Below the pieces are notes generated by a model, which was not told the origin of the DNA, did no database searches, and worked only from the letters and a program-made list of their open reading frames with translations. Shown here piece by piece: positions 12,024 through 42,693 of a stretch of DNA of 50,260 bases (position 1 is its first letter; each line of letters starts with the position of its first letter). Position numbers and translations under genes: made by a program. The stretch covers positions 1 through 50,260 of the forward strand of contig JARLIE010000236.1 of the NCBI GenBank assembly GCA_031291875.1. Direction: 5' to 3'. Source of the stretch: Minisyncoccota bacterium (lineage in GTDB: Bacteria; Patescibacteriota; Minisyncoccia; Phycocordibacterales; UBA2100).

Positions 12024-14804
12024 ATGCCTCCATCGACCATGGAGCGGCCGCGCGTCGCCGCTCAGGAGAAATTCAAATCACCCGAAGAAGAATTAAAGTA
12101 TTTGCGGGAGCGTATCGCGGAAAAGGAACGTGAGCTTGAGGCCGCACCGAATCGTTTTGAAAAAGATCGCATCGCGAAGCGTGAAATCGCACAGTACGCA
12201 GAGCTGACTCCGGCAAAAATTCTCCACGAAGCAGTCGTCATGCCCGAGCACGATATTTTGCGCAACGTACTCAAGCTCGAACCTGAAGCGCATGACTCCC
12301 AAATCGACGGTCTTTTGAAGATTGTGCAGGAGCAGGGTATTCGCAACGCGCTCTCCGTTGTCGCGCGCATGAGAAATCCTCACCTTGAGGACGATCTGCA
12401 CCGCGTGTTGGTGAGGTATATCGCCGAAGGATTGCCCGATAAAGGGCTTGGTGTACCCGAAAAGGTCAAACGGGCGCTACATTTGGCTCTTTTTGAGATC
12501 GAGCCACAGGCGCATGGTGAGGGTAGTAAAGAAGAGGCGAGGCAGCAAAAGCTAGAGCTCGTACTTTCTTCTTCGGAGCAATTGTATGCGGGTTTGATGT
12601 CATTAACCTCGGAGAACGAAGGGTTTTCCCTCGAGATAGCGGTTCCGGAAGGCAGCGAAGAAGCGACGCTCTACTTGGCCGTGCCGGGTGAAAAGCGCAC
12701 GCTCGCTGAACGGCTCATTTCTTCTGTGTTCCCAAACGCAAGGATTTCAGAGCAGCGAGGGGATTACAATATTTTCAATTACGAAGGCGATCATGCGGCG
12801 GCGTATGCGCTGCTTGCGGAACACCCGGCATTCCCACTCAAGACGCCGGATTTGTTCGAACACGACCCGATGAATGTTTTACTTGCCGCGTTCTCAAAAA
12901 TCGCCAAGCATGGCGAGGGTGCCGCGATGCAGATTATCGTCGGGAACGAGGGTGATCGCTACAATCATCACTACAAAAAAATGATTCGCGAGCTCGAAAA
13001 GGGAAAGCCGGTGCATGACGCATTGCACATACCGGAGACGGTGCTCGGCGAAGTTGCGCACGAGACGTTCAAGTCACTCTTCGCTTCTAAAACGCAGGAA
13101 GAGCTGGATCGCGAGGCTCGACGCGGCGCCGACCAGGTTGCTGTCGAAGAGATCGGTCGCAAGGTCAAATCCCGTATAACACCTTCCATCATCCGTCTCG
13201 TTACCTCGGCTCCGACCAAAGCACGTGCCAAGGATTTGCTTTCAAATCTGATTGCACCTTTCAGTCAATACGACGATCCCAAAGGCAACCACCTCAAATT
13301 TAAGGAGGTCGGGAGTTGGGGCCTCGCTCAATTTTTGCGCGAGTACACCTATCGCGAATTTGTCGATTCGTACGCAATGCCCCTTTCGCTGGGCGAGATC
13401 ACCTCGATTTTCCACTTCACTGCCGAACGCGTGACCACTTCGCGCGAATTGAAGCGAAGCTTTGCGAAGCAGGCAGCCGCGCCCGTTGAAATGTCGCAAG
13501 AGGGGATTACGATCGGTATCAATCGCTATGGCGCGACGGAAACGCCTGTTAAATTCGCCGCTGCAGATCGTTTGCGCCACTGCTACGTGATCGGGCAAAC
13601 CGGTACCGGTAAAACAGGACTCATCAAAAATATGATCCTGCAGGATATTAAAAACGGCGACGGTGTCGCGTTTATCGATCCGCACGGCAACGATATCGAA
13701 GACATCCTTGCGAGCATCCCTCCGGAGCGTGCAGCCGATGTGATCTACTTCGACCCTGCGCACACGGAGAGCCCGATGGGACTCAATATGCTCGAGTACG
13801 ACCGTTCGCGGCCGGAAATGAAAACGTTCGTTATCGACGAAGTGTACGGGATTTTCCGCAAATTGTATGCGGATGTGCCGGAGGCGTTCGGACCAATGTT
13901 CGAGCAATACTATCGCAATGCCGTGCAGCTTGTTGTCGAAGATCCGGATACAGGCAGCACCTTCGTTGAGATTCCGCGTGTGTTCGCCGATCCCGCATTC
14001 CGCAACCTAAAACTCTCTCGCTGCAACAACCCGATTATCGTGCAGTTCTGGCGCAAAATTGCCGAGCAGGCGCAAGGTGATCCCTCACTGGAGAACGTTG
14101 CGCCCTACATCACTTCGAAGTTCGATGTCTTTCTCGCCAACGACATTATGCGACCGATCGTCTCGCAAGAGCACTCGGCCTTTAATTTCCGCGAGATTCT
14201 CGACAATAAGAAGATCTTTCTCGCCAATCTTTCCAAAGGCCGCCTTGGCGATCGTAACACAGCGCTCTTAGGGCTCGTGTTGGTCTCGAAATTCCTGCAA
14301 GCGGCGTTTTCTCGCGTCGATTCGCGCGGTGATTTACCCACGTTCTATCTCTATATCGATGAATTCCAGAACTTCGCGACGCCGTCTATCGCCACCATTC
14401 TCTCCGAAGCTCGCAAATACAAGCTTTCGCTCACGGTTGCGCACCAATTTATCGCACAGCTCGAAGAAGAGATTCGTGATGCAGTGATTGGCAACGTAGG
14501 AACCAAGATATCAATGCGTATTGGCACCACCGATGCCGAGTTTTTGGAGAAACAATTCGCACCGGTTTTCTCGGCACAAGATTTGGAGAATTTGCCCAAC
14601 AGAACGGGCGTCGCGGCCCTGCTAGTAAACGGCGTGCCTGCACGACCGTTTACTATCCAGACGATGAACCTACCACAATTCGACTACTCGCGCGTCGACG
14701 CGCTCAAGCAGCTTTCATACTCGACCTACGGTCGTCCGCGTGAAGAGATCGAAGCAGAAATCCGCAGGAAATTCGGCCAACCTTCGCGTCCTGTAGTGGA
14801 CTGA
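12024..14804 (+). CDS. VirD4/TraD-family (type IV coupling protein-like) P-loop NTPase with an uncharacterised N-terminal region of about 490 aa and no TM segment
   Basis: Walker A GQTGTGKTG, FIDPHGNDIEDIL (TraD-like IDPKGD), Walker B YLYIDEFQNF, ...LTVAHQFIAQL (TraG-D_C-like QxxxQL). TATACT box 6 nt upstream of the ATG. Confidence 0.75.
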   Translation: MPPSTMERPRVAAQEKFKSPEEELKYLRERIAEKERELEAAPNRFEKDRIAKREIAQYAELTPAKILHEAVVMPEHDILRNVLKLEPEAHDSQIDGLLKIVQEQGIRNALSVVARMRNPHLEDDLHRVLVRYIAEGLPDKGLGVPEKVKRALHLALFEIEPQAHGEGSKEEARQQKLELVLSSSEQLYAGLMSLTSENEGFSLEIAVPEGSEEATLYLAVPGEKRTLAERLISSVFPNARISEQRGDYNIFNYEGDHAAAYALLAEHPAFPLKTPDLFEHDPMNVLLAAFSKIAKHGEGAAMQIIVGNEGDRYNHHYKKMIRELEKGKPVHDALHIPETVLGEVAHETFKSLFASKTQEELDREARRGADQVAVEEIGRKVKSRITPSIIRLVTSAPTKARAKDLLSNLIAPFSQYDDPKGNHLKFKEVGSWGLAQFLREYTYREFVDSYAMPLSLGEITSIFHFTAERVTTSRELKRSFAKQAAAPVEMSQEGITIGINRYGATETPVKFAAADRLRHCYVIGQTGTGKTGLIKNMILQDIKNGDGVAFIDPHGNDIEDILASIPPERAADVIYFDPAHTESPMGLNMLEYDRSRPEMKTFVIDEVYGIFRKLYADVPEAFGPMFEQYYRNAVQLVVEDPDTGSTFVEIPRVFADPAFRNLKLSRCNNPIIVQFWRKIAEQAQGDPSLENVAPYITSKFDVFLANDIMRPIVSQEHSAFNFREILDNKKIFLANLSKGRLGDRNTALLGLVLVSKFLQAAFSRVDSRGDLPTFYLYIDEFQNFATPSIATILSEARKYKLSLTVAHQFIAQLEEEIRDAVIGNVGTKISMRIGTTDAEFLEKQFAPVFSAQDLENLPNRTGVAALLVNGVPARPFTIQTMNLPQFDYSRVDALKQLSYSTYGRPREEIEAEIRRKFGQPSRPVVD

Positions 14805-20801: not shown

Positions 20802-20987
20802 TTATGAAAGGAATCGGCTTTTTGCCGTGTTGTCGAGAACAGCGTGGAAGGTGCCCGCGCGGTGGTGGCGACGGGTTTCGTTGCCCGAGCGCTTTGCGTT
20901 AAAGTGGTTCTGACCCGGCGCGCGAGCGACGATCTTGCCCTTCTTCGTAACGCGAAGGCGCTTCATGTACGATTTGTTGGTTTTCAT
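20802..20987 (-). CDS. rpmI: 50S ribosomal protein L35 (bL35)
   Basis: MKTNKS..KRLRVTKKGKI....G..H motif. Confidence 0.9.
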   Translation of the reverse strand: MKTNKSYMKRLRVTKKGKIVARAPGQNHFNAKRSGNETRRHHRAGTFHAVLDNTAKSRFLS

Positions 20988-21595
20988 ACCGTTTCTTCAG
21001 TTTTAGGCTCTGCAGCCTGTTTCGACGACTTCCCCTGCGCGGCTTTTTGCGATGCAGGGTCCCGCTCGATCACGACCGAGAGGCCTTTGGGGCTCTTCTT
21101 GATCTCGTCGGCGATTTTATACGATTCTGGGATGATTGCAAGGAATCGCTCGAGGCGCTCCTTCAGAAAGTTGAATTCCATGTATTTATACCTGCCCCAG
21201 AGGAAAAGGTCGATTTTGACCCGGTGACCCTCGCGCAGCCATGAGCCGATCTTCGAGGCCTTGATATTCATGTCGTTCTGGGAGGTACCAATCTTGACCT
21301 GGGCCTCCTTGGTCTCGGTAACTTTGGCCCGCTGCTTCACTTCTTTATCCTTTTTCTTCTGTTCGTACTTGAAACGGCCATAATCGGTAATTTTGCACAC
21401 CGGTGGGTTGGCGTTGGGGGAGATTTCGATGAGGTCGAGCGATAGTTCGCGGGCCTTCGCGATTGCCTCGGCAATAGTAAGTACGCCGAAGTTCTCTCCT
21501 TCGGGGCCCAAGACGCGCACTTCCTTGGCTCGGATGCTTTCGTTCATGCGGACGTTCTCTTTGTCCGCTTGCGTTGTGTATTTCGTAAATCCCAT
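20984..21595 (-). CDS. infC: Translation initiation factor IF-3 with a C-terminal Lys/Ala-rich tail
   Basis: ...MNESIRAKEVRVLGPEGE..GVL....A...A.E..LDLIEISP.A.PPVCKI.DYGRFKYE motif. ATG start. Confidence 0.93.
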   Translation of the reverse strand: MGFTKYTTQADKENVRMNESIRAKEVRVLGPEGENFGVLTIAEAIAKARELSLDLIEISPNANPPVCKITDYGRFKYEQKKKDKEVKQRAKVTETKEAQVKIGTSQNDMNIKASKIGSWLREGHRVKIDLFLWGRYKYMEFNFLKERLERFLAIIPESYKIADEIKKSPKGLSVVIERDPASQKAAQGKSSKQAAEPKTEETV

Positions 21596-21632: not shown

Positions 21633-22979
21633 CTATAGAGAACCGAGGTATGAAAGAAGGCTAGTTAGAGCCGCTTTAAGTTGATTGAGGATTCCTCCCA
21701 ACGGGGAATCCGAAGATAGGACGGTCCCGTTCGAACCATTCATCGTTAACGTGTCGTGTATGTAGGTCGGGTTGCTAGGGGCGAGTCCTGCGGGTGCGGT
21801 AGGTTGGTTTTGATTCTGGTTCTGGTTCAATGCAGGAGCTTGCGCCTGGATGATTGTGGAGATACTCGAGTCTAGTAATGGAGAGAGTGCCACGGAGCTG
21901 TTTGAGGTCGCAACGAGAGGATTTACGATAGATCCGGGAACAGAAAGTTGCGACGAGAGCGAGCCCGTTGACTGTGTAGTTACTCCCGAACTACTGATGG
22001 CAGCGGGTGTGGGGGCGCAAATCGTGCCGAGGCAGCCGTAGTTGCATACTTGGAATACGCTGGTCGCGCACGAATTAGCTTGGTAGTACACCGTGCTGTT
22101 GGAGCAGAAATACTTCGGAGTGCAGGCAGAACCACTCGTGGAGCTCGAAGTAGCTGTCGTTGAAAGTGGCTGTGTGGGAGTAATTTGCGGCGTCGTTTGG
22201 GGAATCGAAGAAATTCCGGGGCTTGTGAATGACGGGGCGGTCGGCGAGACGACAGCCGGTGTAAACGTTTGCGGATAGTCGTACGTCGGATCAGATCCAA
22301 TAACCGTACTGGCCGGCAGGAAGTTGCTTGAATTCACGTCGGCATAGCTATACGCGTAGGAGATACCGCTTTGGTCCTGGAAATTACCGGCAACGTTGAG
22401 CACACCCGGCGCCTTGAGACGCGCGGCGAATGTGTTTACGACTCCTGCGAGTGATTGTTTTAAAATACTCCCGTTCGCAGCGCAGCCTTTGGGAAATAAT
22501 GCGCAGGCGTTTTGACTCGGGTCCTGGATATATGCGTTCAGGAATGTTCTTGCGCCGCCGATACCGAGGAAGTGTGCGAGGTACAAACCGACCGTCATAT
22601 CAATTTTCGATTGTTGAATGAGTGAGCCGACTTGGTTTTTGGCGTCGCCGAGCGCAAAGGCTGTTACTTTGGCGGAGAGACTGGGATCGTTTCGTCCCGA
22701 AAGGTCGTACGGTTGGCCGAACATTGCTTTTGTCGCCGCGTACCAAGAGTTGGTCGTCCACTGAAACATCCCGCAGGCACTCGAGGTCGGTGCGCAACCA
22801 GTCGCTTTGCCGCCATTCTCGACGATCGCGATCTTTGCGAGTATTCCGTTTGGCAATTGGTACATTTGCTCGAGCTGGCCGAGGAGTTGATCGAAATTCG
22901 TATCTGCGAAAGCAGAAAACGGTACCGCGAAGCATGCGAGCAGAAGGGTAGAAGCTACAAGCAAGCGGATTGGACGCAT
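21633..22979 (-). CDS. Secreted lysozyme-fold (SLT-like lytic transglycosylase) protein with an S/T/P and Cys-rich linker and a conserved C-terminal tail
   Basis: Signal peptide. VENGG...CGMFQW...YLAHFLGIGGA motifs. Ends ...LLSYLGSL. Confidence 0.7.
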   Translation of the reverse strand: MRPIRLLVASTLLLACFAVPFSAFADTNFDQLLGQLEQMYQLPNGILAKIAIVENGGKATGCAPTSSACGMFQWTTNSWYAATKAMFGQPYDLSGRNDPSLSAKVTAFALGDAKNQVGSLIQQSKIDMTVGLYLAHFLGIGGARTFLNAYIQDPSQNACALFPKGCAANGSILKQSLAGVVNTFAARLKAPGVLNVAGNFQDQSGISYAYSYADVNSSNFLPASTVIGSDPTYDYPQTFTPAVVSPTAPSFTSPGISSIPQTTPQITPTQPLSTTATSSSTSGSACTPKYFCSNSTVYYQANSCATSVFQVCNYGCLGTICAPTPAAISSSGVTTQSTGSLSSQLSVPGSIVNPLVATSNSSVALSPLLDSSISTIIQAQAPALNQNQNQNQPTAPAGLAPSNPTYIHDTLTMNGSNGTVLSSDSPLGGILNQLKAALTSLLSYLGSL

Positions 22980-23087
22980 TACGGTAAGTATACAGAGAGA
23001 ATCATGTGCCGAGTCTGTCTCTGTTGAGAGACTCGAGTATGTCTTATAGGGAGTATTTTCTTAGGGACCCGGGTTTGCGCTTGCATC

Positions 23088-23107
23088 ATTACACCAAAAG
23101 GTGTAAT
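23088..23107. promoter_or_regulatory. Perfect 8-4-8 palindrome ATTACACC-AAAA-GGTGTAAT overlapping the -10 box of the ArsR gene; probable operator
   Basis: Read directly from the sequence. Ends 9 nt before the ATG at 23116. Confidence 0.6.
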
Positions 23108-23115
23108 TTGTGAGT

Positions 23116-23448
23116 ATGCGCGAATTGACTGATGTCCTAACGGCGATAGCACATCCCACAAGGAGGGCGATCATCAGTCGTTTGGCGGCCTCCGGCCCCA
23201 TGCGCTTTACGGACATCGCCGAACCATTAGCCATGCATCTCAATGCAGTCACGAAGCACCTGAAAACGTTGGAACGGGCTAGGCTCGTTAAGCGCAACAG
23301 GGCCGGCAGGGAAGTCTTTGTATCCCTGCAACCGGCACGACTCCGGCTGGTGTCGGAGTATGTGCATGAATATGAGCATTTCTGGAACCAGCGACTCAAT
23401 GAATTCGAGAAACAATTTAAAAATAAAAAACTAAATAAGCATACATAA
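23116..23448 (+). CDS. ArsR/SmtB-family transcriptional regulator
   Basis: ...LTAIAHPTRRAIISRLA.GPMRFTDIAEPL....NAVTKHLKTLERARLV. A GTG at 23110 is an alternative start. Confidence 0.85.
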   Translation: MRELTDVLTAIAHPTRRAIISRLAASGPMRFTDIAEPLAMHLNAVTKHLKTLERARLVKRNRAGREVFVSLQPARLRLVSEYVHEYEHFWNQRLNEFEKQFKNKKLNKHT

Positions 23449-23452
23449 ATCT

Positions 23453-23872
23453 ATGAAGACTATTGAAATTAAGCTTGAGCGCATTATCTCCGCGAAGCCA
23501 AGCGACGTATATAAGGCATGGCTTAATCCAAAGGTACCGGGCTCACCTTGGAATATGGGCGAGAAGCATATTCTCAATCCTAAATCCGGCGCTCTATGGT
23601 ATTGGCTAGTCGGTAAAACGGCTCACTATGGCATGTTCACAAAAATTGAGCCCTCTCATCAGATTCAACAGACGTGGGTTTCGCCGAGCACTATGGGGTA
23701 CGAGTCGTTGCTGACGGTGACCTTCAAAGCGCATACCGATGGCACGCTCATGAGGCTTGTGCACGCCAATCTTCCCAACACCGCAGATGGCAGGGGACAC
23801 AAGGCGGGCTGGAATATGTTTCTCGACAAGTTTCCCAAGCATTTTGAGAAAAAGCCGTCCAAGAAAAAGTAG
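23453..23872 (+). CDS. SRPBCC (AHSA1-like) domain protein
   Basis: Typical ArsR-SRPBCC pairing. ...VYKAWLNP.....W........F..ie....i...W motif. Lower GC. Confidence 0.7.
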   Translation: MKTIEIKLERIISAKPSDVYKAWLNPKVPGSPWNMGEKHILNPKSGALWYWLVGKTAHYGMFTKIEPSHQIQQTWVSPSTMGYESLLTVTFKAHTDGTLMRLVHANLPNTADGRGHKAGWNMFLDKFPKHFEKKPSKKK

Positions 23873-23898
23873 TTCGTTACCTAGTGAAGCTAAAGCAT

Positions 23899-24195
23899 AT
23901 GAAATTTGCTCTCGTATCAGATCATGCTGGTGGCGTTGAAGTTCCGGAACATGAAAAAGAAGCACACCTGATCGCTTTTGGTAAATGGCTGCAGATGATA
24001 AAGCCAAGTATGGCGTTGCCCGTACACGGAGGCGTTTCAGTTACCTCAAACGCCGTCGAAAACTATAAGGGCGCCGTCGCAGGCGTATTGGTTTTTGAAG
24101 CTGAATCGCTTGAGGAAGCAATAGAAAAGACGCAAAAATCACCGGGACTAAAATACGGATGGACTCACGATGTTTTAAAAGAAATGCTGCTATAG
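23899..24195 (+). CDS. Hypothetical protein, possibly YciI-like
   Basis: Size and the ...VLVFEAESLEEAIE....P segment. A GTG at 23884 is an alternative start. Weak call. Confidence 0.35.
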   Translation: MKFALVSDHAGGVEVPEHEKEAHLIAFGKWLQMIKPSMALPVHGGVSVTSNAVENYKGAVAGVLVFEAESLEEAIEKTQKSPGLKYGWTHDVLKEMLL

Positions 24196-24257
24196 ATAGC
24201 TGGCAACAAAACGTCCCTATGGTATTGCAAAATTTGCGCTAACAAATGGCGCTAGCT

Positions 24258-25493
24258 TTATAGCGACCGAAGATACGAGAGAAGACCACCGAGCGCTGTT
24301 TGAAGCGTGCGGAGAAGGCCCGCAACTGTCGGCGAGTTGTTCCCGGAATATTGCGAATTGAAGGAAGAAGCGAATGTGTCTTGGGTGTATGCGGGAAGCT
24401 GATAGTCACGTGCGCCGGATTGCTGAGAAGTCGTTGCATTGGCCGGGATAATATCGTTCACGATCCTATCGAGGTTTTGATTCAAGGAAAGTGATCCGCT
24501 CGCAGTTGCGACACTGCCGAGGTTGGTAATTATATTCAACGCTTGCTGTGCTGATGTGGAGGTTTGGGGCAAAGCAATCGGTGTCGTCTGAAAGAGGTTT
24601 GAAAAAATATTTGTACTGGTGGTCGCAGGGGTGGTGAGGGGAGAGGTTGGTGTGATTGTAGGGGTTGAAGGAGTAGAAGGAGGAATTGTTTGGGGCTGTT
24701 GGCCGAGAACTTGCGGAGATGCGGAAGAAGAGCCGCTTGAGGGCTGAGAAAGACTGCTGCAAGGAACGGCGATAATCGGCTCCTGGCTTGCAAGGCAGTA
24801 GCCGGGAGGAATGGAAATTTGCGAACTGACCGAGCGAGGAGGTACGTCGTCTTGTGATGGTGTTGCGGCGCTCGAGAGCGTCCCGTTTCCGCCGCTAGCG
24901 TTGCAAACGCCGCATTGTCCTTGCCTACCGCCTGCATCTTGAAAGTGGTTGGGGTCCCAGGCGCCGATCGTTGCGATACCGTAGGACGCTGCGTTGGCGC
25001 GCATCCAAGCAGTTTGTTGGGCGTTGCTGTTGTTGAAGTCGGCGGCAAGTCCCCAGACATGATAGGAACCGCAGGCGGTAGTTACGCGCGTGGCTCCGTC
25101 GCCTCGGGCGATGATACTGTTTTGCTCAGTGATAGAGCGGTAACCGCTCGTAATGACGGGCGGCCCGCCGGGAACAGCTTGCATAAACTTAGCGAGTTTT
25201 TCCGCAAATTGCGGGCTCAAACAAGAAATATTCGAACCTTTTGTGGCGTGCTGCTGCAGCCAGAGCTTTGCATCGCCGGCCGCTTGCCCGGTATTTTGGT
25301 CGCCCGGGTTCCAACACTGCACTGAGGCTGGCAATCCTGCGGCGTTCGCAGCCGCTCGCGTTGCGTCGGTGATGGCGACCGATCCGGCTGGACATTGAGT
25401 ATCTGCGGATGCGCGCAGAGCTATAGCCGTTAGCGAACAAGAAAATGCGAGCGCGAGAAGTACCCAGAAAGCACTGCTCGCACTCGATCTCAT
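24258..25493 (-). CDS. Secreted peptidase M15 (VanY/D-Ala-D-Ala carboxypeptidase-like) protein with an S/T/P-rich linker and the same conserved C-terminal tail
   Basis: Signal peptide from M23 (ATG at 25493, TATACT box 6 nt upstream). ITSGYRS..EQ....SYHVWGLAADF motif. Ends ...LLSYLRSL. Confidence 0.7.
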   Translation of the reverse strand: MRSSASSAFWVLLALAFSCSLTAIALRASADTQCPAGSVAITDATRAAANAAGLPASVQCWNPGDQNTGQAAGDAKLWLQQHATKGSNISCLSPQFAEKLAKFMQAVPGGPPVITSGYRSITEQNSIIARGDGATRVTTACGSYHVWGLAADFNNSNAQQTAWMRANAASYGIATIGAWDPNHFQDAGGRQGQCGVCNASGGNGTLSSAATPSQDDVPPRSVSSQISIPPGYCLASQEPIIAVPCSSLSQPSSGSSSASPQVLGQQPQTIPPSTPSTPTITPTSPLTTPATTSTNIFSNLFQTTPIALPQTSTSAQQALNIITNLGSVATASGSLSLNQNLDRIVNDIIPANATTSQQSGARDYQLPAYTQDTFASSFNSQYSGNNSPTVAGLLRTLQTALGGLLSYLRSL

Positions 25494-25711
25494 GCGCGAA
25501 GTATACCGTGGTTTCCAGACATGAGGCTCTAGAGAACGCGCGGCGCGAAGGCCGAACACGCCGGAAGCGAATCGAATAGTGCGTGAGTGCGTGCTACTCG
25601 CGACAACCTCATATTCGGGTATCTGCCGACCTGAATCCTAACCATGCGAACGAGTGGTGCAGCCAAGAGTCATTCCAGGTGCAGCCATTTCGAAATGGTA
25701 CACTTGTTTCC

Positions 25712-26507: not shown

Positions 26508-27056
26508 ATGTCCCTCACGGATATCATCGCGATCTCCGCAAACATAGCGCTTACACTCACGTTTGTCGTCGGTCTTATATTCGGCATCATCCAGGTGAAA
26601 GCAGCTGAGCGAGATCGTCGTGAGCGACTTACCGTCGACATCCTGCGTGCATTTCAAACGCGCGAATTCGCCGAATTCATCAACTTCTTCCGCAAGGGAA
26701 AGCTCCCCAAGAGTCAGGCGGAGTTTGACGCCTTGGCCGAACGAGAACAAATCATGTATCTGCAATTTTCACAGCAGATGGAATCGCTCGGAATTCTCGT
26801 TGCGGAAAACATCGTGGATATCGACCTCGTCGATAAAACACTTGGCAATTTCGTATCGCTTGCATGGAAAAGGTATGACGCTCGCTTCTCCGAAGCTCGC
26901 AAGTCAGATCCGTTCCTTGGCGAATACTTCCAGTGGCTCGCGGAGCGCATGAGCGAACACAGCGCAGAATTTCCTCGCGAACCGTTTTACCTCAGCGGCG
27001 CAAAGCCCGCTCATAAGCACGCCTCGAGCCGCCGTAATCGAAGAAGTAACTCATAG
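26508..27056 (+). CDS. Hypothetical N-terminally membrane-anchored protein (possibly DUF4760-like)
   Basis: Single N-terminal TM followed by a helical soluble part. Follows the SDR by 7 nt. Confidence 0.55.
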   Translation: MSLTDIIAISANIALTLTFVVGLIFGIIQVKAAERDRRERLTVDILRAFQTREFAEFINFFRKGKLPKSQAEFDALAEREQIMYLQFSQQMESLGILVAENIVDIDLVDKTLGNFVSLAWKRYDARFSEARKSDPFLGEYFQWLAERMSEHSAEFPREPFYLSGAKPAHKHASSRRNRRSNS

Positions 27057-27103: not shown

Positions 27104-27494
27104 TGGTGGAGGTGGGGAGAATCGAACTCCCGTCCAGAGAAAAGTACGGTGCGTGTGTCTACGTGGCGTAGATCACCTGTTTTTGTTTAGGAGTGATGTA
27201 TATAAGATGAACGAAAACACATCACCCCGAGTCCGTGTGCTGGGGTCGGCGTTGGACACCACCGACTTGCGCTTGAGAATTTTACGCCCGACGAAGCTTG
27301 ATCAAGCTTCGGCTCCGCGGACGGCGCATAAGGCCCGGAGGCGTTATGCGAGCTGCAGGTTACCCAATTGAATGGGCGAAACAACTGCACGTGCTACTTT
27401 GTTCGCACTTGAAGTTTGCGAAAGTTTGAGAACATTCCGCAAGTTCGCCGCGCGCACGCACATACCGATTTCCCTGTCGAAGCCAGTCACCCCC
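27104..27494 (-). ncRNA. ssrA: tmRNA (transfer-messenger RNA)
   Basis: 5' GGGGGUGACUGGCUUCGACAGGGA and 3' GGGAGUUCGAUUCUCCCCACCUCCACCA. Acceptor stem with G3:U70. Adjacent to smpB. Candidate tag ORF 27344-27406. Confidence 0.9.
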
Positions 27495-32374: not shown

Positions 32375-35032
32375 CTACGGCAAAGTAACCGGGTATGAAC
32401 TAAGTGGATGCAGAGCACCTAGAAGATTCGCAGTATGGGTGCCATACATGGTATCGAATATGCCCGACCACACCTCACGCTCGTCAACCTCAGTATCCGT
32501 CCAATTGTTTGCATCGGTGCTGGGGTGAAGCGTCCCGATCATGGCCGGCCACTGCAAGAGGTTACTGATAACAACCATCCCTCCTGCGATCCCGTGATCG
32601 GTGCCGTCGTTGCCGTTGGTCTTGTCGGTCCTTCCGAACTCAGAGAACAATACGATTGTGAGTTTCCGACCTTGCGCTGATTCCGCGGTAAAGAGATTCG
32701 TCAAACCAGTCGTCAATGTTTGTATTTGGGAATCAAATTTCGGCTCTTCTTCTGCATGGAAATCATAGGAATCGTCTGCGTAGAGATAATAAACATCTCC
32801 GATATTGTGATTGATCAGATACTCGAGGAACGGCAGTTGTGTTTGGTTGGTCCCGCCTGGCGTCCCTTTTCCGCCTGCTGCCAAATTTTCTTTCGAGAGT
32901 TCGTCGAGGAAAAACGTTTGAGAATAAAAATCAGCTAATCCAGCGGGCAGATTTCGATCCGACAAAACTTTTTTGAGTGTCGCGAGCTGGCCTTTCGGAT
33001 TTGAATTGTCTGTCTTTAGTTCGGGATATAGCGCGAGATCCGCTGCACCCATTTGCAGGCTTTGGCTTCCCCGGTAGAAAATTGGCGGCGAGTCGGTGAG
33101 GGAGACCAAATTAAGTGATGGCTCGGCGCTCTTTAGAAGCGCGCCGATTCCATGACCGTTTGCGGAGAGGCCCGTTTCCATCTGGTCCGATGCGATGTCG
33201 TGGGCGCGTACTTGCCCGGGAAGTCCTACTGCGGTGATGAATGAGATAGTATGTTGCGCAATAAGCGGCTTGAACGCCGAAGCGGCGGGATTAAGCGCGT
33301 AATTTTTGCCAAGCGAGATCGCGTTTGCGGTGTTAAACGCCAGAGAGGCTCTATTCACTGCATATGCCGAGTCGCCTATGTTCGCGACGAGCTGTTGGTA
33401 GTCGAGTCCGCCGCGCACACGCACAATAACGAGCGACGATGAGGCGGAAGATAATTCACCCTGCGTTCTCATCGGCAACGCGGAAGGATTACCACCGTCC
33501 ATCACAAATTCCGGCTGGGCAATCATGATATTGAGAACACCGAGCATTCGACTGAAACTGCCCGGATCTTGCACATTCGTCACGGTCGCATCGGGAATGG
33601 TGTCGTTGTTGCTGAGATAATTTGAGAGATCATTCTCGACTGATGCGGGTAAGGCGACTCCATCATAGAGGACACCCTCAAGCGCTTTAACCAGCTGATC
33701 GGAATTACTGACTCCGCCTTGCGATACAAGGCTCGAGAAAAATTGCTTCTCGGCGTTTGCAGCATGCGGATCGCGAAGAATCCTGTCGGCGCCACCGATC
33801 CACGCGTCTAGGATGCTTCCCGAGAAAAATTCTATATTCGAGTCAAACCCCGGCCGTCCAAAGACACTCCCTGGATGGTGCGGATTGAAGGAAAGTGAAT
33901 AGAGAATCCCTTGATTCGGAACCACCGTATAGTCGTTTCGCCCAAATACCGCCGTATAGAAAGCTGCTACAAGCTCAAGCGGAGAACGATAGCGATCTTC
34001 TTGCATATATGCCGGCCGGTACATTATCGGCGAGGAAAATAGCCAAGTTAGCGAGGGCTTGATATTGAAATCATTCGCACGAATCTCAGACGCAAAGGTC
34101 GTAATATCTTGAGGCTCGGGGTTGTCGGAAACGTAATATTTAAGAATCTTGTATGAGAGAAACTCACTGATTTGCTCCTTGCGCTGAGTCACGATGTAAT
34201 CGATGGCCTGCATCGGATCGGAAAAACTCACGTTCTGCCCCAAAAACATCTTTTGGCCGTTGTAGTGGAATTTCGGATCAAACGTGACGGTATGCTTGTT
34301 CATGGTAGCGCGGTAGCCCGTCAAAAGATACGCGAGACTGTTCACGTCGGCATCGGAGTAGTTTGCTGTCGAATCGGTCGTATCAAGCGGAGTGTACTGT
34401 CCCATGAGAAACAGCTGCATGACTTCGCGGGAATAATTCTCGTTTGGATTTTTTGGATTCGAGCCGATGAGGTTGAGATACTTGCCCATCGCGTAGGAGG
34501 TCTGAACTTGCTTCAACAGGTCGATATAGTTGCCGTACGCACCGTTGTAGAGAATTTGATCGAGGGTTTGTATATCTTGATAGTCGATCTTGTCTACTGC
34601 ATCGCCCGGATCCACCTGCTGATCGACCGAGAAAATGTTTTCCCACAGATAATAGAGCTTGCGCTGTGCTCCGTTGGGATCGTGAATCAGCTCGTACGTA
34701 TAAATCTCTCTCTCAAGTACCGGGGCGGAAGTGGATGCCGTAGGCTGGGATTGCTCGAGTGCGTTCAGGCCGGCACTGTAGGCTACTTCTTCGTTCGGGT
34801 CTGGCGCGGCCAAGAGGATTTGTGCCGCAGCAAAAGCAGAACCTGCAGTGGTCAGGGCCTGGATTTGTGATGGGGTAGGATCAAGCAACACGCGATGGGC
34901 AAGATATGACGCCGTGGAGGCATCCCATACGACGGTCGTGCTTGGGGTGATTTCCGAACGGAAATGGATATACGCAAACACGAGTATGCCGATACTACAA
35001 AGTGCGCTCACGACATACGTGGTATATCGCAT
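32375..35032 (-). CDS. Fused DUF1800-DUF1501 protein with an N-terminal signal anchor (885 aa from M41)
   Basis: N-terminal half is DUF1800-like (…REVMQLFLMGQ…). C-terminal half is DUF1501-like (…GGLDYQQ…, LFSEFGRTDKTNGNDGTDHG). Start at 35032 gives MRYTTYVVSALCSIGILVF. Confidence 0.7.
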   Translation of the reverse strand: MRYTTYVVSALCSIGILVFAYIHFRSEITPSTTVVWDASTASYLAHRVLLDPTPSQIQALTTAGSAFAAAQILLAAPDPNEEVAYSAGLNALEQSQPTASTSAPVLEREIYTYELIHDPNGAQRKLYYLWENIFSVDQQVDPGDAVDKIDYQDIQTLDQILYNGAYGNYIDLLKQVQTSYAMGKYLNLIGSNPKNPNENYSREVMQLFLMGQYTPLDTTDSTANYSDADVNSLAYLLTGYRATMNKHTVTFDPKFHYNGQKMFLGQNVSFSDPMQAIDYIVTQRKEQISEFLSYKILKYYVSDNPEPQDITTFASEIRANDFNIKPSLTWLFSSPIMYRPAYMQEDRYRSPLELVAAFYTAVFGRNDYTVVPNQGILYSLSFNPHHPGSVFGRPGFDSNIEFFSGSILDAWIGGADRILRDPHAANAEKQFFSSLVSQGGVSNSDQLVKALEGVLYDGVALPASVENDLSNYLSNNDTIPDATVTNVQDPGSFSRMLGVLNIMIAQPEFVMDGGNPSALPMRTQGELSSASSSLVIVRVRGGLDYQQLVANIGDSAYAVNRASLAFNTANAISLGKNYALNPAASAFKPLIAQHTISFITAVGLPGQVRAHDIASDQMETGLSANGHGIGALLKSAEPSLNLVSLTDSPPIFYRGSQSLQMGAADLALYPELKTDNSNPKGQLATLKKVLSDRNLPAGLADFYSQTFFLDELSKENLAAGGKGTPGGTNQTQLPFLEYLINHNIGDVYYLYADDSYDFHAEEEPKFDSQIQTLTTGLTNLFTAESAQGRKLTIVLFSEFGRTDKTNGNDGTDHGIAGGMVVISNLLQWPAMIGTLHPSTDANNWTDTEVDEREVWSGIFDTMYGTHTANLLGALHPLSSYPVTLP

Positions 35033-35166
35033 AAGGTATAAAAATAGTAGCACGCTGCTTTGGTTAAGGGCTAAAGGAGGGATAGCGAATTCAAGCAGAA
35101 TTACACTCCTCCCATGTACTGCCGCAGAAGTTGAGGCCGCTGGATACTCCATCTAGCGCTAACATG

Positions 35167-35240
35167 TCCGCCCGCTTGGACTCGAACCAAGGACCGTCGA
35201 GGTATAAGCTCGATGCTCTAACCAACTGAGCTACGGGCGG
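35167..35240 (-). tRNA. tRNA with anticodon UAU (tRNA-Ile, AUA-decoding); CCA not encoded
   Basis: Manual cloverleaf: acceptor CCGCCCG/CGGGCGG, D-arm GCTC/GAGC, anticodon stem TCGAG/CTCGA, loop C-U-UAU-A-C, T-arm CTTGG-TTCGAGT-CCAAG, discriminator A. Confidence 0.88.
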
Positions 35241-35625: not shown

Positions 35626-37323
35626 ATGAGAAAGCAGCTTTCATTTACCGGCCTTTTACTCGCGCTCTTTATTCCGGCAACCGCGCTTGCAGCACAGGCG
35701 CAAGTTTCCCTCGGCGTTAATTCAATCTCACCGTCGGTCGTTACCGTCAATCCGGGCGATACGGTCGTATGGGCCAACACGAGCGGCACGACGCAATCGG
35801 TCATCGGCAATAACAATTTGTTCCAAAGCGGCTCAATAGCGCCGAGCGGACAATTCGCCGCGACATTCAATACCAGCGGTACCTACAACTATTACGACAA
35901 CGCCAACGGCTCCGCGATCGTGGGCGAGGTGATCGTGAATGGAAACTCGAACGCTGTCTCAACGACCGCTACGACGCAATCGACGTATAACCCCAACGCG
36001 GGTTATTACACCAGCACTTCCGCAAACAATGGCGCGAGCATCGCCTCACTCACGGCGCAAGTGCAGGCACTCATCGCTCAAATCAATGCAATGCAGGGCA
36101 CGAGCGGTAACGCATATGCGGGCTCTTCGGGCTCGACCAATGTTGGCACGTGTCCGCAGATTGGTCGCGTTCTTTCGATGGGGGATACAGGAAACGACGT
36201 GGCGAGCTTGCAGCAATTCTTGCACATCTCTCCCGCGACCGGCTACTTTGGTTCGCTCACGCAAACGGCCGTCGAACAATGGCAAGCTGCTAACAACATC
36301 ATTTCGTACGGTTCTCCTTCGACCTCCGGTTACGGTGTCGTCGGTCCTCGCACCGCATCCGCAATTCGTCTCGCCTGCAGCGGCGGCTATAGCAACAATA
36401 CCGCAAGCACTGGTTCCGGTTCGGGTACCGGCAGCGGGGTAGTGAGTGGATTCTTGCAGGTATCACCAATCTCAGGTGCGGCGCCGCTTACGACCACGGC
36501 GACTGTTACGGTCAACACCGCAGCTTCCTGCGGAGGCGGAACGTACACGCTCGATTACGGCGATGGAACGCAGCCCCAGGTGATCACGCTCCAGCCGGGC
36601 ATCTGCTCACAGCAAAATCAGGTATTCCAACATACATATCAAAATGGTGGCACCTATACGCTAACGCTTTCAGCTGGTTCGCATTCATCGACGGCAACCG
36701 TCACCGTTTCCGGATCGTCCGCAGCCCAAGGTTCGCCGACACAGGCATCAGGCTCGATTAATGCGCTTGTCACAAGCGGCACAGCGCCGTTTTCGACCAC
36801 CTTCTATATCTCATGTGCTTCCGGTCTCGCATATGACGTTGTGTACGGCGACGGATCTGATCTCGGCTCGAACGGCGTCTCGCAATCCAACTGCGGCGGC
36901 TCGCTGCAATCGGTCGCGCACACGTACAAATCGCCGGGAACCTATAACGCGCAGTTGATCATCTTCGTTCGCAATTCGCAGGGAACTATCTCTTCGCAAG
37001 CTGTCGCGACACAGGGTATTACCGTCGGAAGCGCGTCGGCATCTTCCGGCAGTTCTAACTCCAACACGTACTCGGCGCCGACGCTCAGTCCGAACGTCAA
37101 CGGAAATCCACTCGCCGCATCGCTTCAATTCCAGATCGGGCCGTGCGCTTCGTATTCAATCAACTGGGGCGATGGCGCATCCTCTCCGGGTACGGGACCT
37201 TGCGGGGGCACCTCGAACACGACGCAAACGACGACGCATACCTATGCGAGTGCTGGAACGTATTCGGTAGTTCTCACTCGAGGCTCGCAGACCAATACCG
37301 TCGGCGTCACGATCACACAATAA
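35626..37323 (+). CDS. Secreted multidomain protein: cupredoxin-like domain, coiled segment, peptidoglycan-binding (PG_binding_1) domain, 3 PKD-like repeats
   Basis: Signal peptide. VTVNPGDTVVW.N...GTYNYY. LSMGDTGNDVASLQQFL...GYFGSLTQTAVEQWQ. Three W/YGDG...HTY..(G)TY repeats. Confidence 0.75.
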   Translation: MRKQLSFTGLLLALFIPATALAAQAQVSLGVNSISPSVVTVNPGDTVVWANTSGTTQSVIGNNNLFQSGSIAPSGQFAATFNTSGTYNYYDNANGSAIVGEVIVNGNSNAVSTTATTQSTYNPNAGYYTSTSANNGASIASLTAQVQALIAQINAMQGTSGNAYAGSSGSTNVGTCPQIGRVLSMGDTGNDVASLQQFLHISPATGYFGSLTQTAVEQWQAANNIISYGSPSTSGYGVVGPRTASAIRLACSGGYSNNTASTGSGSGTGSGVVSGFLQVSPISGAAPLTTTATVTVNTAASCGGGTYTLDYGDGTQPQVITLQPGICSQQNQVFQHTYQNGGTYTLTLSAGSHSSTATVTVSGSSAAQGSPTQASGSINALVTSGTAPFSTTFYISCASGLAYDVVYGDGSDLGSNGVSQSNCGGSLQSVAHTYKSPGTYNAQLIIFVRNSQGTISSQAVATQGITVGSASASSGSSNSNTYSAPTLSPNVNGNPLAASLQFQIGPCASYSINWGDGASSPGTGPCGGTSNTTQTTTHTYASAGTYSVVLTRGSQTNTVGVTITQ

Positions 37324-37324
37324 T

Positions 37325-38077
37325 ATGAAGACGCACGTTGCTCGTAGTATCGCCGCCGCAGTTATTGTGAGCGTCCTGCCGCTTTCGGCCGCAGCCCAAA
37401 GCACAACCGATATTTCAGCGGTATTGGCGCAAATCACCACGCTCGAACAACAAATAAAATTACTGACTGGTTCGTCCAGCACAGCGACCTCGACGCCGAG
37501 CACACCGGCTCCGTCTTCGACACCCTCGACGCAAGCATCTTGTCCTGATCTTTCGCGAACGCTCTCACTCGGAATTTCTGGCGCGGACGTTTCCGGTCTC
37601 CAAGTATTCCTGGCGCAAGAAGGATATTTCAATGGACTTACGACGGGCTATTTCGGTTCGCTGACGCAGGCCTCTGTAGCTGCTTGGCAAGAAAAGAACG
37701 GAATTGTGACCGGAGGCGATGCCAATTCGACAGGGCTTGGCGTAGTAGGCCCGAAAACGCGCGCCGCTATGGAAGCGGCGTGCGCTCCCGGGCAGGGAAC
37801 GACGCCCGCAAAAGCGCAGTGCATCCCGGCCCATCCTCCGACGCTTGAATGTTCGACTCAATGGCAACCCGTTCTTGATGCGAACGGTTGTAGCAGCTAC
37901 TACCAGTGCACGGTACAGCTGCCGCAATCCTCAACGCCGACCTCCTCGAATCCGAGCGCGACCTCTTCCGCCCCAGTAACGTGTCCGTTCGTCCAAAAGC
38001 CTACCTGCTCGGGTACTGTCACACCGTTCCAAACCAATGCCAATGGGTGTGTGATTTCGTACCAGTGTTCGATCTAG
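37325..38077 (+). CDS. Secreted protein: coiled segment, PG_binding_1 domain, duplicated Cys-rich C-terminal module
   Basis: Signal peptide. LSLGISGADVSGLQVFL...GYFGSLTQASVAAWQ. Two ...ANGCxxxYQC modules. Confidence 0.75.
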   Translation: MKTHVARSIAAAVIVSVLPLSAAAQSTTDISAVLAQITTLEQQIKLLTGSSSTATSTPSTPAPSSTPSTQASCPDLSRTLSLGISGADVSGLQVFLAQEGYFNGLTTGYFGSLTQASVAAWQEKNGIVTGGDANSTGLGVVGPKTRAAMEAACAPGQGTTPAKAQCIPAHPPTLECSTQWQPVLDANGCSSYYQCTVQLPQSSTPTSSNPSATSSAPVTCPFVQKPTCSGTVTPFQTNANGCVISYQCSI

Positions 38078-41429: not shown

Positions 41430-42146
41430 ATGGAACGAACCACTCAGATGTGGCTTATCGGCGGATTTATTGTAGTTGTCATCCTCGCCGTTGTAGCCGC
41501 AGCAGTTTTCTCGAACGGCGCTTCTATCAATTCTTCTGGCTTTAGCGCGACGATTGCCGCGCCGATTACCGCAGACGATCATGTGCAAGGGGACACAAGC
41601 TCGAAAGTGACAGTCGTCGAGTACGGCGATTTTGAATGTCCCGCGTGCGGCGCATGGGAGCCGCTCGTCCAGCAGCTCGAGCAGCAATACGACAATCGCG
41701 TCGAGTTCGTTTTCCGCAATTTCCCGCTGACACAGGTACACCCCTTTGCGATGATCGGTTCACAAGCCGCCGAAGCCGCCGCCGATCAGGGTAAGTACTG
41801 GGAAATGCACGATCTTTTGTACAAGAATCAGACCGCATGGACCGCCGACACGTCGCTGAAGCCCGCTGATGTCGTCACGAAATTCTTCAACGGCTACGCA
41901 CAGCAGCTCGGACTCGATGTGACGAAGTTCGACACCGACATCAACTCGAGCGCGACCATCGCGCGCGTGCAGCGTGACATTGATTCCGGCACTGCCGCGC
42001 AGATCAATCACACGCCGACCTTCTTCGTCAACCTCACTCAGATCCAAAACCCGACCGGTCTTGCGCAATTCCAGCAGGTGATCGATCAGGCGCTCGCGGC
42101 AGCCGCGGCTTCAAGTTCTCAGCAAACGGCGACCTCGACCAAGTAA
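41430..42146 (+). CDS. DsbA-family thiol:disulfide oxidoreductase, membrane-anchored
   Basis: N-terminal TM. VVEYGDFECPACG active site. ...HPFA..G..AAEAA..QGKYWEMHD motif. Confidence 0.85.
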   Translation: MERTTQMWLIGGFIVVVILAVVAAAVFSNGASINSSGFSATIAAPITADDHVQGDTSSKVTVVEYGDFECPACGAWEPLVQQLEQQYDNRVEFVFRNFPLTQVHPFAMIGSQAAEAAADQGKYWEMHDLLYKNQTAWTADTSLKPADVVTKFFNGYAQQLGLDVTKFDTDINSSATIARVQRDIDSGTAAQINHTPTFFVNLTQIQNPTGLAQFQQVIDQALAAAAASSSQQTATSTK

Positions 42147-42147
42147 C

Positions 42148-42693
42148 ATGCCGGCTTTTGCCTCCATATTCATTCTTTTGATGGCGATCGGCACCCTGGT
42201 GCTCGACATTGCACTTGTCGCGAAACTCCTCACGCTCTTCAAGGCGAGTGGGCGCGCAAAGCTTCGTAGGGCGTACGGCTCGTACGGCCTCATGCTGATT
42301 TTCGTCTTTTCAACGCTCGCGATTGCGGGGACGCTGATCATGCAATACGTGGGAGCGCTGAATCCGTGCGTCTTATGCTGGTGGCAGCGCGTCTTTATGT
42401 ATCCGATTCCGTTCATTTCTCTGATCGCGATCATCAAAGGACAAAAACTTTCCGACATCGCGGATTACTTGCTCTCGCTCTCATTCATTGGCGCGCTCAT
42501 TGCCCTCTACCAACATCTTTTGCAAATCCTTCCTACTGGTTCGCTTATCCCATGCGACCCGACAGGCGATTGTGCTGTGCGCACCGTTTTTTATTTCAAT
42601 TTCGTGACCATTCCGTGGATGGCGGTCACCGTCTTTGCCGCGATTTTCCTCATCGCGCTCATTGGTCGCTCGGCAGGAACATCTTCCAATTAA
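42148..42693 (+). CDS. DsbB/BdbC-family disulfide bond formation protein
   Basis: NPCVLCWWQR motif, second Cys pair C..TGDC, multi-TM. 1 nt after the dsbA-like stop. Confidence 0.8.
   Translation: MPAFASIFILLMAIGTLVLDIALVAKLLTLFKASGRAKLRRAYGSYGLMLIFVFSTLAIAGTLIMQYVGALNPCVLCWWQRVFMYPIPFISLIAIIKGQKLSDIADYLLSLSFIGALIALYQHLLQILPTGSLIPCDPTGDCAVRTVFYFNFVTIPWMAVTVFAAIFLIALIGRSAGTSSN

Follow-up and report, generated by a model that had tools for sequence, protein, structure and literature searches.

What does a C-terminal ending do when it is shared by two secreted peptidoglycan hydrolases whose catalytic domains are unrelated? The question is raised by a contig of 50,260 nucleotides from a Minisyncoccota bacterium (JARLIE010000236.1; the whole stretch is called the window), in which two genes on the minus strand, ORF1 and ORF2 (open reading frames, ORFs, 1 and 2), encode a lytic transglycosylase (LT) and an M15-type peptidase with closely similar last residues. 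A first-pass annotation took the ending for a short tag of 21 residues at the extreme C-terminus, possibly one for sorting, anchoring or partner recognition in a family of cell-wall-degrading exoproteins. Neither a short tag nor a mark of a broad family of exoproteins is supported, since the similarity spans a homologous module of ~85-93 aa (up to ~190 aa with a six-cysteine unit), and all carriers found are LT or M15 peptidoglycan hydrolases, encoded in one genomic slot wherever flanking DNA was visible. The module is new in sequence and lineage-specific, and in kind it resembles amphipathic C-terminal anchors and the targeting modules that hydrolases share. The two genes are as follows.

21633-22979, minus strand: ORF1, 448 aa, secreted LT with a C-terminal stalk-and-helix module (ORF list and orthologues).
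24258-25493, minus strand: ORF2, 411 aa, secreted LAS/M15 (VanY/LdcB-like) peptidase with the same C-terminal module (ORF list and 43 homologues).

Both ORFs were recovered at the coordinates first given for them, and the proteins end in GGILNQLKAALTSLLSYLGSL (ORF1) and AGLLRTLQTALGGLLSYLRSL (ORF2), each followed directly by the stop codon, with 12 of 21 residues identical and ...LLSYLxSL-COOH as the common terminus. The stop codons are genuine and not an artefact of sequencing error, given that orthologues from independent assemblies terminate at the same residue. A six-frame scan of the whole 50-kb window found such tails on these two proteins only, and a degenerate DNA pattern for the tail matched two sites in the window, ORF1 and ORF2, and none in 100 shuffles. 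Upstream of the tail, the Y-x-(H/Q)-D-T patch noted at first reading is present as TYIHDTL in ORF1 and AYTQDTF in ORF2, whereas other features ascribed to both proteins hold in part: the N/Q-rich stretch before the tail is obvious in ORF1 and not in ORF2, the cysteine-containing linker is a true Cys-rich module of six cysteines in ORF1 and a two-Cys hairpin only in ORF2, and the equal distance from tail to stop codon holds within the window but not across the family.

The extent of the shared region was defined by pairwise and profile alignment. BLASTP aligned residues 356-448 of ORF1 with residues 328-411 of ORF2 at 33% identity (E 2e-5), and hhalign, run on one profile per family (LT and M15) built from the C-terminal 110 residues, returned a probability of 98.8% over 80 columns (E 1e-16). 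The module and its parts are located as follows.

21636-21914, minus strand: shared C-terminal module, ORF1 copy, aa 356-448 (BLASTP, hhalign).
24261-24512, minus strand: shared C-terminal module, ORF2 copy, aa 328-411 (BLASTP, hhalign; E 4e-11 with a hidden Markov model, HMM, of the tail).
21636-21704, minus strand: predicted terminal amphipathic helix of ORF1, aa 426-448, PLGGILNQLKAALTSLLSYLGSL (AlphaFold2, AF2, helix 426-447; predicted local distance difference test, pLDDT, ~70).
24261-24332, minus strand: predicted terminal amphipathic helix of ORF2, aa 388-411, PTVAGLLRTLQTALGGLLSYLRSL (AF2 helix 388-410, pLDDT 76-79).
22014-22124, minus strand: six-cysteine (6-Cys) mini-domain of ORF1, aa 286-322, CTPKYFCSNSTVYYQANSCATSVFQVCNYGCLGTICA (AF2 three short beta strands, pLDDT 72-82).
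24753-24809, minus strand: predicted beta hairpin between two Cys of ORF2, aa 229-247, PPGYCLASQEPIIAVPCSS (AF2 strands 232-237 and 240-244).

The module is laid out as conserved islands (..S.SLN..L..I....I., then Y-x-x-D-T-F/L), a variable low-complexity stretch and a final helix of 22-24 residues. The regions after the catalytic domains are predicted by AF2 to be disordered apart from the 6-Cys unit of ORF1, the 2-Cys hairpin of ORF2 and the single terminal helix of each protein. The 6-Cys mini-domain, with the pattern C-[TS]-P-x-Y-x-C-S-N-x2-V-Y-Y-x4-C-x6-C-x2-G-C-x4-C, is the best-conserved part of the LT family (75% mean identity) and occurs in many M15 relatives, though not in ORF2; its sole Pfam match is a weak one to PF22906 (E 0.004). 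The 2-Cys hairpin of ORF2 is kept in its nearest M15 relatives, P0008, P0009 and P0016.

The module falls outside known sorting-signal and domain models, as had been proposed for the tail: isolated modules of ORF1, ORF2 and one relative of the type described below as PFGG had no match at E<=10 in Pfam or NCBIfam, including the curated sorting-signal models, and no description of the module was found in the literature. With the substrates of sortases and exosortases (LPXTG, PEP-CTERM, GlyGly-CTERM and PGF-CTERM) and with the C-terminal domain (CTD) of the type IX secretion system (T9SS), the module has in common its C-terminal position on secreted proteins. Unlike sortase and exosortase signals, it has no signature motif, no transmembrane (TM) segment followed by a basic cluster, no cognate enzyme nearby and no large set of substrates. 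An LPXTG-type signal is contradicted by the lack of the motif and of any NCBIfam or Pfam match, by the amphipathic character of the helix and by proteins that end at the helix; for exosortase, rhombosortase and archaeosortase signals, no model matched the isolated modules at the same threshold. A T9SS CTD is likewise contradicted by the predicted disorder and single helix, with no beta-sandwich and no profile match, and by relatives that are Kaiserbacteria and not diderms of the Bacteroidota type. Hydrolases with LysM, SH3b, choline-binding, SLH or PG_binding_1 domains offer another parallel, in that one non-catalytic C-terminal module likewise stands on varied heads within a genome and is shuffled between genes. 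LysM-type domains, however, are folded, widespread and well profiled and bind wall polymers, whereas the present module is mostly disordered, with one helix and no profile match. Two adjacent secreted-looking proteins with PG_binding_1 domains, one of them also with PKD repeats, are encoded in the window at 35626-38077 (plus strand); standard wall-binding domains are therefore used on other proteins of this organism and not on the two hydrolases.

The heads that carry the module are of two kinds, located as follows.

22275-22904, minus strand: LT catalytic domain of ORF1, aa 26-235, gp144/SLT-like, with Glu54 (phmmer, AF2, Foldseek, conservation).
24879-25403, minus strand: M15/LAS catalytic domain of ORF2, aa 31-205, with Zn ligands H145, D152 and H183 (Pfam VanY, Foldseek, conservation).

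Residues 43-173 of ORF1 match the lytic transglycosylase gp144 of phage phiKZ (PDB 3bkh; phmmer, 3bkh/9xps, E 2e-8). The AF2 model of the head is confident over residues 30-235 (pLDDT mostly 84-97), and its best Foldseek matches are gp144, MltE and MltF at a probability of 0.99-1.00. The catalytic Glu54, within VENGG, is invariant in 13 LT sequences, and the lysozyme-like all-alpha fold is accompanied by the E-[SN]-x-G motif. ORF1 itself had no match to Pfam PF01464 (SLT) at E<=1 and so lies below the gathering threshold of that family; a precomputed PF01464 match exists for 7 of 12 ORF1 orthologues and, where its strength is given, is weak for P0049 and P0059, and is unmarked for P0055 and P0058. 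ORF1 is a divergent member of the family-1/GH23-type LTs (SLT/phiKZ gp144-like). ORF2 reaches 22.6 bits against Pfam VanY (E 1e-4), under the curated cut-off of 25 bits, and 17.2 bits against Peptidase_M15_3, where the cut-off is 23.2. Foldseek matched its model to LdcB (4jid), VanXYc (4mus), VanX (1r44) and LysB4, each at a probability of 1.00, and the triad H145-x6-D152...H183 together with Y118-R119, the motif of M15/LAS enzymes, is invariant in 40 M15 sequences. Profile, Foldseek and conserved residues thus agree with the first assignment of two secreted murein hydrolases with unrelated catalytic folds, and both heads have the fold and the catalytic residues of gp144-type LTs and of LdcB/VanY-type LAS peptidases, respectively. 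Unlike ORF1, gp144 has an N-terminal peptidoglycan-binding domain and neither a signal peptide nor a stalk. A phage origin of the module was considered and rejected, since phage homologues found by tblastn align to ORF1 aa 28-232 only, which is the catalytic domain, and are without the C-terminal module.

Both proteins begin with a Sec-like N-terminus, as first annotated.

22905-22979, minus strand: ORF1 putative signal peptide, aa 1-25, MRPIRLLVASTLLLACFAVPFSAFA followed by DT (most hydrophobic 19-aa window, Kyte-Doolittle 2.19; predicted cleavage).
25404-25493, minus strand: ORF2 putative signal peptide, aa 1-30, ...AIALRASA followed by DTQ (most hydrophobic window; AF2 N-terminal helix 5-28; predicted cleavage).

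In each case an AxA|D junction, SAFA|DT in ORF1 and RASA|DT in ORF2, directly follows the most hydrophobic segment of the protein, and A25-D26-T27 of the AFA|DT junction is invariant across the LT family. Both N-termini are probably cleavable Sec signal peptides, cleavage having been judged by eye. Anchoring as lipoproteins was rejected by inspection, as the Cys residues of the signal peptides sit in the middle of the h-region and are not conserved. Adjacent genes for a DsbA-like thioredoxin and DsbB lie at 41430-42693 (plus strand) of the window and imply extracytoplasmic disulfide formation, and the pair fits extracytoplasmic disulfides in a Cys-rich secreted stalk.

Homologue searches placed the module within a narrow range of genomes and genes. 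Full-length ORF2 retrieved 43 homologues, one of them from Candidatus Kaiserbacteria RIFCSPHIGHO2_02_FULL_54, and nearly all consist of a signal peptide, an M15 head, a Ser/Thr/Pro/Gln-rich stalk that often includes the 6-Cys unit, a (Q/D)TF(T/V)SxDL patch and the amphipathic helix. Ten LT orthologues with 45-50% overall identity to ORF1 keep the LT domain, the 6-Cys unit and the module, with tails such as LLSYLGSL, FLNYLRSL and LLAYLGSL, and two more distant LTs have an immunoglobulin-like C-terminus in place of the module. Most M15 homologues continue past the helix with (K/R)PFGG and 5-15 further residues, often with a Glu end (frequently ...Y-x-E-COOH), as in L130 8667-11212, L131 8568-11383, L132 2828-3982 and L134 3-749. 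Only the subclade that includes the window proteins stops right after the helix, at an end that aligns with the 'PF' of PFGG; in L132 and L134 the M15 enzyme has the extension and the LT of the same genome ends at the helix. The PFGG extension could be removable.

Wherever flanking DNA was visible, the carriers occupy a slot directly upstream of infC-rpmI-rplT, whose features and contents are given below.

20984-21595, minus strand: infC (translation initiation factor IF-3; Pfam IF3_N, IF3_C), the downstream neighbour that marks the syntenic slot, the same in all relative loci.
23110-24195, plus strand: cassette of ArsR-type helix-turn-helix, AHSA1/SRPBCC and YCII genes (Pfam), which separates ORF1 and ORF2 in the window genome only.
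Loci L002, L004, L006 and L132-L134: M15 and LT genes in the slot; fragment L126 (M15 and LT) ends before infC.
Loci L130 and L131: an M15 gene and a second M15 gene of a different subtype.
Loci L001 and L128: an M15 gene alone.
Locus L135: an LT gene alone.

ORF1 lies directly upstream of infC, as do the LT genes of L002, L004, L006 and L132-L135. The two hydrolase genes are adjacent in L002, L004, L006 and L130-L134, and the ArsR/AHSA1/YCII cassette therefore looks like a lineage-specific insertion. The M15 carriers belong to several subtypes, and more than 50 proteins of at least three catalytic types have retained the helix.

A tail HMM built from ~50 sequences detected no third kind of carrier in the window and related loci, ~200 kb in total. 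A strict DNA pattern for the tail, ~160 times stricter than a looser one, was scanned against 241 million metagenome records, where four stretches matched, one of them noise, and the seven genuine sites all lie in LT or M15 genes; on a metagenome contig of 329.6 kb the LT/M15 pair alone matches. The strict pattern had no matches in viral contigs. The looser pattern, applied to GTDB genomes, gave chance matches in AT-rich genomes and was too loose to be informative, none of the matches listed scoring with the tail HMM. A profile of the two tails found nothing in a word-indexed protein search, and in an exhaustive hmmsearch of 1.84 billion representatives it separated nothing from noise except ORF1 and a single M15 relative, a search of low sensitivity that missed orthologues found by full-length queries, so that divergent carriers are possible. 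Among the data searched, the module appears confined to a Kaiserbacteria-like clade and to one locus. No cytoplasmic protein was seen among the carriers found, in line with the first reading of the tail as a mark of secreted proteins. The suggestion of an effector role fared less well: nothing points to it, and the genes lie among housekeeping genes with conserved synteny. The window encodes ribosomal proteins, SecY, adk, map, NDK, RNase J, infC-rpmI-rplT, FtsH and transfer-messenger RNA (tmRNA), and derives from a Kaiserbacteria-type bacterium of the candidate phyla radiation (CPR).

The age of the shared ending bears on whether it could be the remnant of a simple recent duplication, which the first-pass annotation had named as an outcome that would defeat its proposal. 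The DNA of the two tails in the window is 58% identical, with 27% identity at third positions and the same codon at 4 of 13 identical residues, and over the whole module third-position identity is 21%, with the same codon at 11 of 56 identical residues. Third-codon identity at the random level means that the copies are old and that it is the protein sequence whose similarity has been maintained. On these codon data, in which synonymous sites are saturated, both a recent duplication and gene conversion were rejected for the window copies. Orthologues in more than 15 related assemblies have kept the module as well. Within the LT family, mean pairwise identity is 0.61 for the catalytic domain, 0.75 for the 6-Cys module, 0.29-0.32 for the linkers and 0.55 for the terminal helix. 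Together these data support conservation of the shared C-terminus, and selection on it.

A different history is recorded in L130 (8667-11212) and L131 (8568-11383), where tandem M15 genes of different catalytic subtypes have C-terminal halves that are 73-76% identical in amino acids. Between 58 and 66% of the codons at shared residues are identical in these tandem genes, and the last 45 residues are identical in L130; the high codon identity of the 3' parts argues for gene conversion between the neighbouring genes. One cassette thus stands on different catalytic heads because adjacent hydrolase genes exchanged their 3' parts, and on the codon evidence the sharing of the module is module exchange, in some genomes gene conversion, between neighbours.

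What the conserved helix does can be approached through its physical properties. Across the family tails, Eisenberg mean hydrophobicity <H> is 0.15-0.48 and the hydrophobic moment muH 0.38-0.56 (z 2.5-3.7 against shuffles), with a net charge of +1 to +2; for the ORF1 helix <H> is 0.37 and muH 0.40 (z 2.9), and for the ORF2 helix <H> is 0.21 and muH 0.56 (z 3.0). The last 19-21 residues have a Kyte-Doolittle hydropathy of 0.76-1.0, against 2.19 for the signal peptides, which is below the TM range and upholds the initial description of the tail as amphipathic; the tail is not a TM helix. The values of <H> and muH are within the range of the C-terminal anchors of Escherichia coli penicillin-binding proteins (PBPs) PBP5 and PBP6, and the PBP5 tail used for comparison was checked against 6ntz_A, whose final 20 residues it forms.

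The reading we favour, tentatively and at somewhat less than even confidence, is that the module is a surface-retention stalk and anchor that would work like the C-terminal amphipathic anchor of PBP5. In PBP5, an amphipathic helix made of the C-terminal 18 residues holds the secreted enzyme at the inner membrane, on its outer face, and both localisation and function of the enzyme depend on this helix (PMC2909392). Low-molecular-weight PBPs (E. coli PBP5/DacA, PBP6/DacC and PBP4) are, like ORF1 and ORF2, Sec-secreted peptidoglycan enzymes with a terminal amphipathic helix of ~18-22 residues, and the PBP5/6 anchors are similar to the module helix in mean hydrophobicity, hydrophobic moment and net charge. 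The structural features of the class, namely a secreted enzyme, a signal peptide of the cleaved type and such a helix, are all present here, whereas its aromatic-rich face and any sequence similarity to the DacA and DacC tails are absent. The PBP5 helix follows a folded beta domain, whereas 100-190 residues of disordered stalk precede the module helix, and the PBP anchors stand on serine DD-carboxypeptidases, whereas the module stands on LT and M15 heads, many relatives having the PFGG...E extension.

On this proposal, ORF1 and ORF2 are a Sec-secreted pair in which the former cuts glycan strands and the latter peptide stems. The cassette on each comprises a long stalk, rich in S/T/P/Q and predicted to be disordered, a few islands of conservation (the Y-x-x-D-T-F patch among them) and an amphipathic end helix of ~22 residues, and the 6-Cys knot in the stalk of ORF1 would be disulfide-bonded. 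Signal peptidase would take off the N-terminal anchor, and the terminal helix would then settle on the outward side of the cytoplasmic membrane, or on some other fixed component of the surface. The enzyme would in this way stay on a cell that lacks an outer membrane, and the head, on its flexible stalk, could reach into the wall. The neighbouring hydrolase genes upstream of infC have exchanged 3' parts, which some genomes still homogenise. The homology and conservation of the module, the modelled layout of confident heads, disordered stalks and one end helix, the Dsb pair, and the occurrence of the cassette on variable LT and M15 heads in a single slot also count in favour of this reading. The cleavable-looking signal peptides on both proteins suggest that other means of retention are needed in a monoderm cell. 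Pair-specific co-variation of the two helices was not detected (p 0.37, n=7), which fits a common target, either non-specific or conserved.

Several observations weigh against a simple membrane anchor, and both membrane binding by the helix and the retention function are what we infer from its likeness to PBP5. The apolar face of the helix is 63% Leu and 10% aromatic, compared with 55-69% aromatic in the PBP5/6 anchors, giving a Leu-rich, zipper-like face in place of an aromatic one. The a/d heptad spacing at positions -18, -15, -11, -8, -4 and -1 is more like helix-helix packing than like an interfacial membrane helix, and Lys at -14 (36 of 51), Tyr or Phe at -5 and near-invariant Leu go beyond the needs of simple amphipathicity. 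The anchor model also leaves without a role the (K/R)PFGG and short, often Glu-ending tail that follows the helix in most relatives, and the conserved islands upstream of the helix.

The same properties of the helix, its Leu residues at a/d heptad positions, its Leu-rich face and its residue-specific conservation, would be expected of a docking helix, in which a short stretch resembling a leucine zipper would bind a protein, be it the sister hydrolase, a second copy of the same enzyme or a conserved surface scaffold or regulator. This alternative, the main rival, is possible though on balance doubtful. The scaffold could be the divisome, a wall-synthesis complex, a pilus or a type IV secretion system (T4SS), and the effect would be to co-locate glycan and peptide cutting. 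It is favoured by the fact that the two carriers are usually neighbouring genes, by L130 and L131, in each of which two distinct M15 enzymes have almost the same module, and by helix positions -12 and -6, which co-vary exactly in four genomes. The co-variation vanishes, however, at seven pairs, and the sameness in L130 and L131 comes from gene conversion and need not mean selection for matching. The helix comprises only ~2.5-3 heptads, short for a free-standing coiled coil, and a leucine zipper would call for four or more. The slots with a single carrier make an obligate LT-M15 heterodimer unlikely, and a common partner would still be compatible with them.

A more specific form of docking, which we regard as rather unlikely, is a lineage-specific address label, in which the zipper-like helix and the upstream islands would together dock two complementary wall-cutting enzymes onto a Kaiserbacteria surface scaffold, with PFGG...E as a removable propeptide. 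Candidate scaffolds would include the division and wall-growth machinery, a pilus or T4SS-type apparatus and the site of contact with a host cell.

The original idea of a true sorting signal, in which dedicated machinery (sortase- or exosortase-like, or a protease that removes PFGG...E) reads the tail on a wider set of exoproteins, now seems very improbable. The C-terminal position is conserved in the window clade, the match of no known model means that such a signal would be new, and PFGG...E could be a cleaved propeptide, the more so as the window-type end aligns exactly with 'PF'. The tripartite layout of motif, TM segment and basic tail is nevertheless missing, no candidate processing enzyme was seen in the window or the conserved neighbourhood, and the carriers found are all LT or M15 hydrolases from a single slot, with the pair alone on the 329.6-kb contig, all seven genuine metagenome sites in such genes and no other carrier in the ~200 kb of related loci.

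Slightly less probable again is a degron or regulatory tail, whose apolar C-terminus would be read by a PDZ-containing C-terminal processing protease that limits potentially lethal hydrolases. Such proteases commonly control wall hydrolases, Prc/NlpI acting on MepS and CtpA/LbcA on its substrates, the window tails do end apolar (...SL-COOH), and an S41/PDZ protease is encoded in the related genome L129. Most family members, however, end acidic after the PFGG extension, so that the helix is conserved and the carboxy-terminal context is not, and the locus has no linked S41 protease.

There is a slim chance, lower still, that the ending has no specific function and is a residue of duplication or of 3'-end exchange, with the helix as the incidental end of a linker. 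In its favour, the carriers lie side by side, L130 and L131 show clear gene conversion and homology extends to the linkers, but the helix has been kept although synonymous sites of the window lineage are saturated, shows roughly double the conservation of the linkers among orthologues at 45-50% identity, and persists across catalytic types. Least probable of all is an ordinary C-terminal TM anchor, for although the segment is helical, Leu-rich and 22-24 residues long, its hydropathy is far under that of the signal peptides and short of the ~1.6 over at least 18 residues of a TM segment, polar or charged residues (N, Q, K, T and S; E, K and R in PFGG-type members) occur at every turn, and the window proteins stop at the helix with no basic cytoplasmic tail.

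Little is known of how CPR bacteria (Patescibacteria), which are tiny monoderms and for the most part uncultured, retain secreted enzymes on the cell and control the cleavage of their own or a host's wall, and the module gives a concrete, sequence-defined handle on the matter. With ~90 aa and no database model, it marks the paired glycan- and peptide-cutting hydrolases of one clade and is usable as an annotation profile. A PBP5-like tether and nothing more would make for a useful but unsurprising annotation. A label that docks the enzymes to a specific scaffold would offer a route to the wall-remodelling or host-contact machinery, and an address label would amount to a surface-retention or recruitment system that is new and particular to CPR bacteria.

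The starts of the two genes are marked by similar upstream elements.

22987-22992, minus strand: TATACT -10-like box of ORF1, 7 nt upstream of the ATG (probable leaderless promoter).
25500-25505, minus strand: TATACT -10-like box of ORF2, 6 nt upstream of the ATG.

For ORF2, the ATG at 25493 was preferred over a GTG at 25559 because of the box 6 nt upstream of the former, which is conserved in orthologues. A TATACT/TACAAT -10-like box lies 6-8 nt before the ATG in 11 of 33 window genes checked, both hydrolases included, and is kept in hydrolase orthologues, and Shine-Dalgarno-like sequences are scarce (3 of the 33). Together these counts suggest widespread leaderless transcripts in the source organism.

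Two further neighbours recur around the hydrolase slot. A 926-aa VirD4/TraG-like coupling-protein ATPase (TraG-D_C, TrwB_AAD_bind) is encoded at 12024-14804 (plus strand) of the window, and a TraG-like counterpart (DUF8128 and TraG-D_C) lies at a conserved distance from the slot in L004, L006, L130 and L131. In the window-type clade, the M15 gene repeatedly has a gene for a DUF4760 membrane protein as its neighbour (window 26508-27056, plus strand; L002 2388-2909; L004 8125-8670), and SNase and PdaC/DUF3298 genes take the place of the DUF4760 gene in more distant genomes. Elsewhere on the minus strand of the window are a tmRNA gene at 27104-27494, with the predicted tag peptide ANKVARAVVSPIQLGNLQLA, a tRNA-Ile gene at 35166-35240 with the anticodon TAT (UAU), uncommon in bacteria, and, at 32375-35152, a gene for a 925-aa protein that joins DUF1800 and part of DUF1501, usually encoded by two separate neighbouring genes.

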